Assembly (NCBI GenBank): GCA_951406725.2 | Contig: OX597816.1 | Location: 35,092,001 to 35,156,000, forward strand | Origin: Octopus vulgaris | Lineage: Eukaryota | DNA length: 64,000 bases | Direction: 5' to 3' | In this document: positions 30,643 through 57,855 of the stretch, one piece after another | How the letters are laid out: each line of letters starts with the position of its first letter | Position numbering within the stretch: the stretch's first letter is position 1 | The notes under the pieces: generated by a model | Told to the model about the DNA's origin: nothing | The model's database searches: none | The model's input: the letters and a program-made list of their open reading frames with translations, nothing else | Position numbers and translations under genes: made by a program

Positions 30643-30900
30643 CAGGGGCTGGGCAAAATATTGGAAACACCTTAAATTTCAAGCAAATTTATTTTAATAT
30701 AGGGGTAGGACCGCATTTGGCAGTAATTAGAGCTTGAATTCTACGAGGTGTGGACGCGTAGAATGTTCGAATTCTTTCCAAAGGAATTTTTCTCCATTCT
30801 TCAGTTAAAATAGTCTCCAGTTTTTGTAGTGATAAGTGTAGAGGATATTGACTCCTTACTTGTTTTTTTCTAAAATGCACCATAAATCTCCAATAATATT
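30643..30900 (-). mobile_element. Tc1-like transposon 3' end with TIR
   Basis: TIR CAGGGGCTGGGCAAAATATTGGAAACAC after TA; translation EEWRKIPLERIRTFYASTPRRIQALITAKCGPT. Confidence 0.88.
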
Positions 30901-31348
30901 TATCACTTTACTGATGATATAACTGAAAATTCTTAAATGTGCTAAGCTTTCAAATAAGTATTAATAAACTGAATGGAGTCAGTGCCTCCCTACAGAAACA
31001 CAGAGGTGCACATCAACGCGTATATCTATATATATTTGTTTGAGATACATGACTAACATGTGTGTGTGTGAATTTCATCGTTATATTTTCTTGTATCCTG
31101 GAAGGGTCACAATAACTGCTTCATCGAAAATTTGCCAAAGAATTATGCTGGAATATTATTACAATATATAAGAAATGATGTATCGGAGACTTGTCGTTGA
31201 AAACACTGGAAAGTAACCGCTCACCAGTTTACAATTTAAGCATAAATTGAATTGCCAACTTAACCCTTATTTCAAAGAATATATGCCACCAATTGAAGAT
31301 GTTATTATTATTTCATACGCACACCTTAGTTAAAACAAAAATCAAAAA

Positions 31349-31762
31349 GATAATGTGGTTGTATAAAGTCAACATAACGTGACATTCCCGTAGAGGGAAA
31401 AACACCACCGCTATATAGCCCTAGGAAGCATCGACGCTTCTTGTCGGCTTTGACACATTTCCTGTGTCCTTATATTCGCAAAGGGGAGGCAAGCACCCCC
31501 ACTAGCTAGGATTAGCAACCTGAATACATGCATGTTTCTGGGTATTGCCCGACATCAGTTCAGGGTAGCGTGTCCCAGCTAGCGGTGATACTTACCAAGT
31601 CTTTGCGAATATATCTATTTACAGTGAAATTTATTCACTGGTCACCGTAATTAGAAATATTGAATTTCTAAATGTCTCAACGAGTCATGAGCGGTGGTGG
31701 AACGATAAAGTGGCTGTATAAAGTCGACATAACGTGACAGTCCCGTAGAGGGAATTACACCA
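31349..31762 (-). mobile_element. Retrozyme-like unit: 355-bp monomer plus 59-bp terminal redundancy, with a central HHR
   Basis: Direct repeats at 31349-31407 and 31704-31762; nested inverted stems surround a hammerhead motif. Confidence 0.65.
31519..31564 (-). ncRNA. Type I hammerhead motif (A9U substitution in this copy)
   Basis: Minus strand reads CCUGAA CUGAUGU C GGG CAAUA CCC A GAA ACAUGCAUGU A UUCAGG: 6-bp stem I and 10-nt palindromic stem III. Confidence 0.75.
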
Positions 31763-32231
31763 TATTATTACACCAAAGATAATGAAATAACAAATCCAAA
31801 TTGATCCGTCCAGAGTAAATGAAAAGAACAAAACAAGAAAAGGAGAATAATACATTTATCCGTAAAGAATAAGATAATATAGGAATCTCTAGATTCACGC
31901 ATTTATCAACACCTAAGGGGTTACGTGAAGTCATTTGTGGTGGCTGATCGCACAAAGAGCATTTACTTTATATTTTGATACTGATGTGTGCTATCTAAAT
32001 TTTGTCAAGATTTTATGCCTTCTAATTGGTCTATTAGCGCACTAGTTACTGTTACATATGCTAATATCAAAATATTTTTATTGCTATGATTATATTTATA
32101 GTATCACTACAAAAAATATTACTGGAATTACTATCTAATTGGTTAAGTCTCCAATTATTGGAATTATGCATGTAATTTTATTAATTATATGGCGTTGCTT
32201 ATGTATGTGTGTGCGTGTGTGTGTATGTATG

Positions 32232-54089: not shown

Positions 54090-55500
54090 GAGAGTTTACG
54101 AAAAAAACAAGAGTAAGAGAGGTGGTGTACAAAGCAAACAGATGTATTAGTATAACGCTCAGGAATAAAAAAAAGTATTTTACGTTTCGAGCCTACGCTC
54201 TTCTACAGAAAGGGACACAGAAAAAAACAAAGAGAGAAACAATTTATGTAGTGGCTAACGATCTATCATGGCGACTGCCGGACAGAAGGGTCACAAAGGA
54301 GAACGAAGAAGCAGGGGAGATAAAATAAAGATGCCTCCCCAACACGAAGGTGCGTGTGTGTATAAGGGAGTATGTATGTGCGAATGAAAGAGGGTTGGTG
54401 GTCTGGACGTGTGCGTAGGTGTAGGTGTGAAAATGTGGGGATGGGAATTAGTCAGTGCTGGTGTGTGGTTGGTGGGTTGTGATGTGATGTGTAATGTTGT
54501 ATGGTGTAGTGTGGTGTGGTGTGATGTTGTTTGGAGTTGGGTGAGGCGAGAGTGGAGAAAGCACGGGTGTGGTATGGGTCCAGCTGAGTGTTGGGGTATG
54601 GGGTAGGCAGAGGGTGGTGATAGAGGTGGGGTTTGTGGGTAGGCAGAGGGTGGTAGTAGAGGTGGGATATATGGGAGAGGGTGTAGGGGATAGGATGGGG
54701 GGATGGGAAGTATAGGGAAGGTGGAGTAGGAATGTGTATGGGTGCGTTGGGCTTATAGGGAAGGGTTGATTATGAAGGGGGAAGGGGAAGGTGGGTATGT
54801 CAGGAAAGAGAGTAAGAGAGAAGAGAGAAATATGGAAGAGAGAAAGCGAGTGAGAGAGAAGAGAGAAAGAGAGAAGAGAGAAAGAGAGTAAGAGAGAAGA
54901 GAGAAAGAGAGAAGAGAGAAAGCGAGTAAGAGAGAAGAGAGAGAGAGAAGTAGGAATGAAGAGAAGTAGGAGTGAAGATATGTAGGAGTCGGGCAAGAGA
55001 GGAGAGTTGGGTGGGAGGAAGTAGGAGGGGGGAGAGGCAGGGGGAGAAGGTTAGATGCATAGGGGAGGAGAGTTGAGCCCAAATGGCGTAAAGGAGCGAA
55101 GAGAGAATATTAATCTCTGTTCACGGCGCAAACGGGACTCACTATGGTCTCTGCAAGGACAATCTGAACACGGACGGGTGTTGTAAAGAGTGACCGGTAG
55201 ATCGGAAACGGCATGAGACCGGGGTGTTATTGCCGAGGCGGATGTCTCGGAGGTGTTCCGCGAACCGGTCAGCCAAGCGGTGTCCCGTTTGTCCGATGTA
55301 CAGAGAATGACAGAGAGAGAGAGAGCATGAGATGTAATATATGATATTGGTGGAGTGCAGGTGATGGAGTCGGTGATGCAATAGGGTCGATGCTGGGTGC
55401 CGGTGAGGAGACTGGTGTTGGAGAGGTAAGGGCAAGTGCGGCAGCGTGGGCGGGAGCAGGGGAACGAACCAGGCTGGGAGGTAGACACACACTGTGTGTG
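54086..55500 (-). mobile_element. 5'-truncated Penelope-like element (Neptune-like): zinc finger, GIY-YIG, 3' UTR and terminal repeat
   Basis: Translations FPCSRPRCRTCPY, NIIYYISCS..C..LYIGQTGHRLADRFAEH and RLRREQRLIFSLRSFTPFGLN, split by frameshifts; bounded by TA tracts. Confidence 0.92.
54176..54213 (-). ncRNA. Hammerhead-like motif, variant core CUGUAGA
   Basis: Minus strand reads UUU CUGUAGA A GAGC GUAG GCUC GAA ACGU A AAA; stem I is reduced to 3 bp. Confidence 0.55.
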
Positions 55501-55563: not shown

Positions 55564-55566
55564 CAA

Positions 55567-55801
55567 AATGGTCCCTTTGCATACTGAATACTTGGTGAAA
55601 TTGATTAATTAATTAATTTTACCCTCAATTGTTGAAATTATAATTCATCTCTCTCTATTTAATGCTTCGGATTTTACCGAAAAAGCATAGTGTTTACTGA
55701 TTTTAACCCACGCTGGTGGAAAGGGGAGAGCAGAAATTCTTCGCTTGCATATTTTGGGTTTGCTGGCACTGTTAGTTTCGAGCAGATCTTCAGAAGCGAT
55801 A
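55567..55801. repeat. Partial copy of the 556-bp unit, between TA tracts
   Basis: Essentially identical to the reverse complement of ~56390-56625. Confidence 0.92.
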
Positions 55802-56017
55802 TATATATATGTCAAAAAATTGTGAAGCATGACTGTCAACACTACTACATGAACCCGAAGATTGCAGAATTCAATGCATGAAAGTACTAGTTCAATCAGA
55901 ATGAATATTTAACATTCTACTATTTCATTTTATTTTATTCAATTATAATATATTATCTTTATATCATTATAAGATTGTAAATAAAACGTGAAAATCAGAC
56001 AAGGTTGGAATTCTTTT

Positions 56018-56087
<70 letters not shown>

Positions 56088-56095
<8 letters not shown>

Positions 56096-57242
56096 AAAGG
56101 GCTTAGTAAAATAAATTACTTTGCCACATACTGAACTCATTAGAAATAGTACCCAAAAAAAAACTTTTTTTAAACTATTTCTAATACTTAAAGAAAATCT
56201 CTCTCATATAGTGTTTGCTCAATTCAACTCACGAAAGTATGGGGGTAAAGACATTAAAAAATCAAATGCAAAGGTTATTTGAGAACGTACGTTTCTAGAT
56301 TAGTCAACTCGACATTTCTATCATCAGCTTAGAACTCCTTGGTTTGGATTTGAAAACACTGAAAGTGGGAGCATACCCTTTCGGCTTCTTATCGCTTCTG
56401 AAGATCTGCTCGAAACTAACAGTGCCAGCAAACCCAAAATATGCAAGCGAAGAATTTCTGCTCTCCCCTTTCCACCAGCGTGGGTTAAAATCAGTAAACA
56501 CTATGCTTTTTCGGTAAAATCCGAAGCATTAAATAGAGAGAGATGAATTATAATTTCAACAATTGAGGGTAAAATTAATTAATTAATCAATTTCACCAAG
56601 TATTCAGTATGCAAAGGGACCATTTAAGGCGAATTCTTGGTGAAATTGATTAATTAATTAATTTTACCCTCAATTGTTGAAATTATAATTCATCTCTCTC
56701 TATTTAATGCTTCGGATTTTACCGAAAAAGCATAGTGTTTACTGATTTTAACCCACGCTGGTGGAAAGGGGAGAGCAGAAATTCTTCGCTTGCATATTTT
56801 GGGTTTGCTGGCACTGTTAGTTTCGAGCAGATCTTCAGAAGCGATAAGAAGCCGAAAGGGTATGCTCCCACTTTCAGTGTTTTCAAATCCAAACCAAGGA
56901 GTTCTGAGCTGTGATAGAAATGTCGAGTTGACTAATCTAGAAACGTACGTTCTCAAATAACCTTTGCATTTGATTTTTTAATGTCTTTACCCCCATACTT
57001 TCGTGAGTTGAATTGAGCAAACACTATATGAGAGAGATTTTCTTTAAGTATTAGAAATAGTTTTAAAAAGGTTTTTTTGGCTACTATTTCTAATGAGTTC
57101 AGTATGTGGCAAAGTAATTTATTTTACTAAGCCCTTTTATATAATGTAATAATTTGAATTCGCCTTAAATGGTCCCTTTGCTTACTGAATACTTGGTGAA
57201 ATTGATTAATTAATTAATTTTACCCTCAATTGTTGAAATTAT
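56088..57242. repeat. Inverted plus partial tandem copies of a 556-bp unit
   Basis: Arms 56088-56600 and 56636-57145 are reverse complements with a 35-bp spacer; CTTGGTGAAATTGATT recurs at 56636 and 57192. Confidence 0.95.
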
Positions 57243-57855
57243 ATATATATATATATATCGTCACTGAAGTATTTCATATGTGATACTTACTTGTAACATG
57301 GAACTACTGGTGATATGGAAGCCAGCACAACCGCTTGTTTGGTCGAATTCAGTGACCAAACCACCACAACCCAGGCTTACCTGCGAGGATGTTTGGTGGG
57401 GACCCAGAAGGACTAATACAAAGGCCTATAAAAAATATCATTGAACCTACTGTAGGTTCTACGTCTCGCTAGCAATAACACGGGGCCCCAGAAAATAACG
57501 TTTGGTGTCCGTTGGGCTGGAGGGCCACTGGTTGTAGGGTGTACTTCAGCGTTGGTTAAAGAATATAGCTTGTAAAGACCACTCTTTTCTCGAAGACGTC
57601 TGTAGATTGGAGAGGTTGTCTCAGGTGCTATGCAAGTCTTTTTAGGCCCAACATTTTGGATTGCACAATCGCTGGCAAAGCGACTTTACGATGCCCAGTT
57701 GAGTAGGGGAGCATCGTAATAAACACAGAAGCAGCTGAGGGTAATGTGGGTGAATCCGATAAAGGGTAAAGCAACCTCATGCTCGGGCATTACGGTATTT
57801 CGCACACGCTATATTCACACACGTATATGTGTACACATATGCGAAAGTGAATGTT

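Follow-up and report, generated by a model that had tools for sequence, protein, structure and literature searches.

The closest described relatives of the element reported here are the metazoan non-LTR retrozymes of Cervera and de la Pena (2020, PMC7229834), with which it shares a type I hammerhead ribozyme, a unit on the 350-nt scale, the lack of an open reading frame (ORF), strong self-pairing, and a mollusc host. Those retrozymes form long arrays, whereas the octopus copies are mostly dispersed and shorter than about two units; mussel retrozymes of 350 to 390 nt accumulate as circles. Penelope-like elements (PLEs) have been proposed as the mobilizers of metazoan retrozymes (PMC7229834), and Li, Clavereau, and Pollet (2026, bioRxiv 10.64898/2026.07.22.740005) argued for a PLE origin of non-LTR retrozymes on the basis of co-occurrence and pseudo-LTR (pLTR) homology, mainly in vertebrates. 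As for the enzymes, a purified anole PLE protein, predicted to be a dimer, cleaves both DNA strands at AT-rich sites and begins reverse transcription at two positions inside the RNA, the limits of the genomic "tail"; insertion in vitro did not need hammerhead cleavage, mutants being without effect (PMC11167929). Inverted PLE insertions usually have the tail at one of their ends (bioRxiv 2021.04.23.441226), and the target duplications of rotifer PLEs measure 8 to 10 bp (PMC3846280).

The window, a 64,000-nt stretch of the Octopus vulgaris genome (contig OX597816.1, positions 35,092,001 to 35,156,000), contains one copy of a dispersed, ORF-less 355-nt hammerhead repeat, i.e., a non-LTR retrozyme. 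This 5'-truncated copy occupies positions 31355 to 31762 on the minus strand, its 408 nt comprising one 355-nt unit plus 53 nt (1.15 units), and is 94% identical to the family majority, with 21 differing positions relative to the 355-nt majority unit. Unit positions are numbered along the hammerhead strand with position 1 at window 31762, which places the expected cleavage after unit 238. Direct repeats at 31346 to 31407 and 31701 to 31762 are 355 nt apart and 89% identical. The initial annotation had described 59-bp direct repeats 355 bp apart, which we recovered with 53 of 59 positions matching; because 31349 to 31354 are target flank, they consist of a 53-bp repeat of the element itself (31355 to 31407 and 31710 to 31762) plus target bases. 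This terminal repeat corresponds to a partial tandem of the PLE type, and the proposed copying of slightly more than one round is borne out by the seamless passage beyond one unit. The element is bounded by a target-site duplication of 9 to 10 bp, one copy at its 3' end (31346 to 31355, AAAGATAAT plus one ambiguous base) and the other at its 5' end (31775 to 31784), the latter preceded by 12 nt of minus-strand junction filler (31763 to 31774) in which, by its sequence, a stretch of the element's initial bases has been copied again. In agreement with the reported absence of an ORF, the longest stop-free frame is 50 aa. GC content is 44.8% for the window unit, 47.0% for the majority, and 43.1% for a second, 353-nt family (see below), values on either side of the roughly 45% below which retrozymes are expected to lie. 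In three sequencing runs of unstated kind, no contig joined across the window insertion as an empty site would; contigs spanning its junctions (30858 to 31384 and 31734 to 32190) occurred in two of the three and, as these are labelled as two different organisms, the insertion is likely not a private recent event.

A genome search with the 355-nt unit gave 2,521 first-look candidates, 40 of which were scored. Exact matches numbered 86 for the intact-core pattern (0 for the reversed control), 380 for the motif at one preferred end site, B, and 286 for that at the other, A. A consensus lacking the CUGANGA core had been named beforehand as evidence against a retrozyme, and the 86 intact-core matches show that the family consensus keeps it; the retrozyme-like monomer of the initial annotation thus stands as a multicopy, noncoding 355-nt unit with a conserved type I hammerhead. 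Pooling four genome searches with the unit and two with a cargo sequence described below yielded 121 distinct insertions, the size of the unit falling within the 150 to 450 nt of noncoding, multicopy non-LTR retrozymes. The type I topology and duplications of 8 to 15 nt set the family apart from plant-type LTR retrozymes, which have a type III hammerhead in their LTRs and a 4-bp duplication. Further copies were mostly dispersed and shorter than about 2 units: no contiguous run in the 121 insertions exceeded 749 nt, and 1 of 12 loci found with a two-unit query exceeded about 2.1 units. Head-to-tail loci with two hammerheads do occur (L027, L008, L119, L097, L005, and L269), as does a 4.1-unit tandem of unlike units (L275). 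The second retrozyme family (353 nt, e.g., L240 to L259) is 57% identical to the first, returned 4,099 first-look candidates, and keeps the same layout, with ends at matching positions as read by eye and uncounted. A more distant third type was seen at L229 and L231; both the second family and this type also carry the insertions described below as ORF1-only.

The type I hammerhead lies at 31519 to 31564 on the minus strand, identified by its sequence, by covariation across 27 copies, and by the family core. Stem I pairs 31559 to 31564 with 31519 to 31524; the core, CUGAUG-U, runs from 31558 to 31552; stem II (31551 to 31539) has a C-A mismatch at its base; next come GAAA and a palindromic stem III; and with a GUA cleavage triplet, cleavage would be expected 3' of 31525. 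An Rfam scan of the locus with E values up to 10 returned neither a hammerhead nor another relevant family, so the call rests on inspection and covariation. Among 27 chosen copies of several subfamilies, all six stem I pairs showed double changes, and none of 500 shuffles reached the covariation score, a comparison in which relatedness alone can beat shuffles and 3 of the 27 rows are misaligned in stems II and III. The base pair at the foot of stem II is noncanonical in 25 of the 27 rows, a defect similar to that of an axolotl hammerhead (PMC7229834), and stem III is, by eye, palindromic in each main variant. The reported A9U core mutation is present as the U at 31552; it is private to the window copy, 29 of the 30 top copies having A at core position 9. 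With this change and one hammerhead only, the window copy could likely not release a monomer, which upholds the inactivity suggested for it.

The unit is strongly self-paired. The stems noted initially proved accurate in detail: 31403-31412/31690-31699 (10 of 10) and 31471-31483/31601-31613 (13 of 13) pair perfectly, and the two mismatches of 31499-31511/31573-31585 become G-U pairs solely on the minus strand. That strand folds at -135.4 kcal/mol (z, -9.4; none of 100 shuffles equally stable), the plus strand with a z of -7.2. The monomer had been pictured as a rod, which holds for the minus-strand arm closing the hammerhead (about 31471 to 31613, built from the latter two stems) but not for the remainder, where short hairpins form a multibranch. 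At minimum energy, the hammerhead core is partly mispaired, the hammerhead-competent fold lying 3.1 kcal/mol above the minimum for the window copy and 4.4 kcal/mol above it for the family majority.

Across the family, the ends of the insertions follow a definite pattern. Among one-armed insertions, 67 of 73 3' ends fall at site A (39) or site B (28), A being a broad class (unit 29 to 64, mostly 50 to 63) whose limits are obscured by microhomology to runs of TC and TA; 5' ends are spread across the unit. Site A (about unit 50 to 58) corresponds to window 31350 to 31358 on the minus strand, where the window copy has its 3' end (31355), and is, by analogy with PMC11167929, likely an internal start of reverse transcription. 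Site B (about unit 107 to 116; 31647 to 31655, minus strand), the family's second preferred 3' end, lies just 3' of a hairpin at 31650 to 31670. The two are about 60 nt apart, neither coincides with the cleavage site, and the minus-strand segment between them (31650 to 31710), with two predicted hairpins, would be the equivalent of a tail. A second, head-to-head inverted arm is present in 46 of the 121 insertions, comprising 35 A+B, 1 A+A, 0 B+B, and 10 with one unclassified end. With these 10 left out, and with end classes that were drawn after inspection of the data, A+B pairing accounts for 35 of 36 insertions (P of about 5e-10 versus independent choice); in the subset picked by the hammerhead motif alone it was found in 12 of 12 classifiable cases among 14 two-armed insertions. 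Duplications of at least 8 nt flank 14 of the 33 insertions with nonmicrosatellite flanks (33 of 95 examined), against 3.6% of shuffled pairs. TA or TC runs abut 54 of 119 A and B ends. A TC run directly follows the A end in 15 of 74 cases and the B end in 0 of 45, and the runs at A could reflect target choice by microhomology or a telomerase-like slippage on the template. Attachment to a coding element with fixed ends had been named as grounds for rejecting a retrozyme; the ends are indeed fixed, at two internal sites, but there is no constant coding partner. Taken together, 3' ends that are fixed at two sites within the unit, second arms in inverted orientation, and short duplications make up the signature of PLEs, which the initial annotation had overlooked.

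This pattern matches the tail and internal priming of the anole enzyme (PMC11167929), and PLE enzymes are therefore the likely mobilizers of the family. We put at roughly 80% the probability that the window copy was inserted by the reverse transcriptase (RT) and GIY-YIG endonuclease of a PLE acting in trans. With EN+ PLEs (PMC11167929, PMC3846280, bioRxiv 2021.04.23.441226) the family shares two internal starts, a tail on one arm, head-to-head arms, partial tandems, 8- to 13-bp duplications, AT-rich or (TA)n targets, and a TATA plus initiator-like motif near the hammerhead. It differs in having no RT/EN ORF, in the predicted fold of its unit, a closed and strongly paired monomer, and in the A-B spacing of about 60 nt rather than the 30 to 40 nt of PLE tails, the last counting against the PLE reading. 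In the mechanism we envisage, transcription would start from a source locus that has two hammerheads as well as the TATA-like promoter, and the transcript would cleave itself to a monomer, which probably circularizes. A PLE protein, likely a dimer, would bind the hairpins around A and B and nick both target strands about 9 to 13 bp apart, with priming at A from one nick and at B from the second. Synthesis would then proceed back around the unit, past the cleavage junction, and end after about two turns at most; persistence of both primed strands would give a head-to-head A+B insertion and otherwise a single arm would result, the window copy representing the single-arm outcome, primed at A and carried through 1.15 turns.

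Candidate enzymes are present: the genome holds many uninterrupted 781-aa frames with GIY-YIG matches, and the two such frames tested matched both RVT_1 and GIY-YIG. No pLTR homologous to the unit was found in 30 PLE loci (of 6,136 first-look GIY-YIG candidates); the one weak match, at L087, comes from an old second-family retrozyme copy that lies outside the PLE. Apparent PLE-retrozyme chimeras were likewise discarded, L015 being an insertion into a preexisting PLE ORF, L011 and L027 having some 80 to 100 nt of non-PLE sequence at the junction, and L007 a microsatellite in between. A young PLE family (L081 to L086) has a frame of 781 aa and, downstream of its ORF, a promoter-like array of repeats, and a pattern search of its pLTR gave no hammerhead. 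Elsewhere in the window, positions 56085 to 57148 form an inverted repeat (97%), with more copies of the inner arm at 55566 to 55801, a minimal hammerhead-like motif near 56395 to 56420, and an adjoining GIY-YIG fragment at 55238 to 55354; the whole region (55566 to 57243) likely consists of PLE-type inverted insertions of another family. Its segment 55803 to 56020 resembles, by eye, the 3' end of the L087 PLE, including a hammerhead of its own whose stem III is a 4-nt palindrome.

Some units contain an insert of 1.7 kb at about unit 177 to 207; it has the orientation of the hammerhead strand and lies immediately 5' of the core. It encodes a single ORF of 460 to 480 aa (460 to 463 aa in two intact copies), with a zf-CCHC match (E, 0.0016) just below the curated Pfam cutoff and ZCCHC3-like look-alikes at 0.89 to 0.92, which are weak by that method's own measure. 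First-look candidates numbered 285 for the insert and 13,843 for the wider protein family, and a search with the protein identified a single homolog among 7,999 scored candidates, a protein of Octopus bimaculoides. Twenty ten-kilobase loci contained no RT frame of at least 300 aa on the same strand, as expected of an ORF2 partner. From these sequence features we read the protein as LINE ORF1-like and the element as an ORF1-only LINE. HAL1-like elements are ORF1-only, nonautonomous LINEs. The cargo resembles these and the target-specific Tx1 elements (PMC4494074) in its CCHC knuckle, ZCCHC3-like RNA-binding features, direct duplications, and reinsertion at the same site. It differs from them in its apparent target, about 25 to 30 nt downstream of TATA boxes in unlike sequences, retrozyme subfamilies included, and in the later movement of the composite with PLE-type ends; the 20 loci contained no ORF2 partner.

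The duplications flanking the cargo, mostly 15 to 21 nt, agree within each locus and vary from one host subfamily to another, a sign of repeated independent insertion. Of 52 cargo junctions with a duplication of at least 11 nt, 16 have a strict TATA motif 18 to 40 nt upstream, many of the 16 representing one homologous retrozyme site and a handful unrelated targets (L178, L232, L237, and L222); for comparison, a similar motif lies 24 to 33 nt upstream of 1.9% of random positions, window and pattern not being identical. In the window copy, the TATA-like box (unit 143 to 155; 31608 to 31622, minus strand) would direct a start about 25 to 30 nt downstream, at about 31583 to 31587, and this presumed start region is the position of the ORF1-only insertion in other copies. 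The junctions suggest that ORF1-only elements may target transcription start sites. At L220 to L239 (e.g., G000:C4:70038000-70058000 and C4:27052000-27072000), 1.8-kb ORF1-only elements of several subfamilies form trains, inserted in head-to-tail order at a single site; the train's first element is often located 26 to 32 nt downstream of a TATA box, and identical scores make some train copies likely very young. At the 5' junction of the L169 insert (G000:C10 near 40599134), the first 13 nt or so of the ORF1-only element appear to resemble the 5' end of U1 snRNA. The retrozyme and its ORF1-only cargo move as a unit with PLE-type ends: in L197 both arms have their 5' ends inside the insert and their 3' ends at A and B, L059 begins within the last 60 nt of the insert and ends at A, L227 holds tandem composites about 2 kb apart, and A+B pairing was found in 6 of 6 classifiable two-armed composites (of 12).

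Two other accounts of the copies appear improbable to different degrees. The unit might be the pLTR of an undiscovered autonomous PLE and the copies truncated PLE ends, not a separate noncoding replicon; every end feature is after all a PLE feature, and Xenopus retrozymes resemble pLTRs (bioRxiv 10.64898/2026.07.22.740005). We consider this improbable, given that copies continue without a seam over more than two units and no ORF for RT and GIY-YIG was found between these, such as an autonomous PLE would have, that the sole recurring coding insert is without RT or endonuclease, and that the pLTRs of the 30 PLE loci show no similarity to the unit. Less credible still is SINE-like mobilization by a LINE, for example a Tx1/L1-type partner of the ORF1-only elements, with inversions arising through twin priming, although LINE-like elements are abundant and target the unit, and short target duplications are also compatible with LINEs. 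LINE priming begins at the RNA's 3' end, and twin priming yields largely nonoverlapping segments. The arms seen here overlap, end at two fixed internal sites, and pair strictly as A+B; the unit has neither a tail repeat nor a tRNA-like head, and the ORF1-only insertions mostly have longer duplications, of about 15 to 21 nt.

PLE mobilization leaves a choice of template. Copies cross the cleavage junction seamlessly and none of 142 arms has its 5' end exactly at the cleavage site, which lends a linear monomer template no support; a mild cluster of 5' ends occurs at unit 241 to 253. Successive turns differ by 7.6% (4,572 sites, L275 left out) and paired arms by 7.65% (3,124 sites), compared with 13.1% between insertions, an equality that fits one monomer read repeatedly and equally a homogeneous multimer. 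We lean toward a circular RNA, with which the data fit. A substantial minority view would be that what PLE enzymes copied was a linear multimer left uncleaved, or a read-through transcript, derived from source loci in tandem, and that the hammerhead, like any circle, is incidental. The indifference of in vitro PLE insertion to hammerhead mutations (PMC11167929) speaks for this, as do the mispaired core of the minimum-energy fold, the missing ends at the cleavage site, and L275, whose unlike units indicate that a linear multimer could be a template and that not every multimer came from one circle. Against it stand the rarity of arrays documented by the run lengths above, the likeness of successive turns to paired arms, the retention of core and stems across subfamilies, and the circular accumulation of mussel units of similar size (PMC7229834). 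None of the runs listed as containing the sequence is on record as RNA; contigs from four runs presumed to be RNA overlap portions of related copies, with no back-joint, but by their nature cannot show strand, ends, or circles and carry no weight either way.

On the preferred reading of a PLE-mobilized circular template, the composites would allow a three-tier parasite, a scenario we regard as speculative and rather unlikely in full: a circular hammerhead RNA would hijack dimeric PLE priming, once per hairpin-defined site, and an ORF1-only element homing to start sites, the retrozyme promoter among them, would turn the 355-nt circle into a protein-coding ribozyme circle of about 2 kb, of which that PLE enzyme makes tandem copies. 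If true, this would be a natural protein-coding retrozyme in an animal.

By its testable features the family is a non-LTR retrozyme, a known class, and what is new is the evidence on its movement. The literature searched gave no account of an octopus retrozyme, this family, paired use of retrozyme ends, or an ORF1-carrying composite, though supplements, Repbase, or Dfam may list the family; fixed paired ends, inverted arms, and target duplications as found in octopus are not described in the accessible text of PMC7229834. The vertebrate preprint (bioRxiv 10.64898/2026.07.22.740005) reaches the same conclusion of PLE-driven movement, and monomers, dimers, and multimers coexist in both systems; its evidence includes pLTR homology, whereas ours is insertion anatomy in a mollusc, with no homologous pLTR among 30 PLE loci.

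Overall, the data bear on what mobilizes animal retrozymes, for which the PLE case has so far been built on shared hammerheads, co-occurrence, and pLTR similarity, and they place the PLE insertion fingerprint on a noncoding RNA element. The near-strict A+B pairing implies a claim about the PLE mechanism itself, namely, that a single complex uses a different priming site for each target strand, and a well-folded 355-nt substrate with a cis signal of about 60 nt suits the existing in vitro PLE assay. The apparent targeting of start sites by ORF1-only elements is a separate lead. In the octopus genome, the same signal of about 60 nt appears to move a foreign coding cargo of 1.7 kb.
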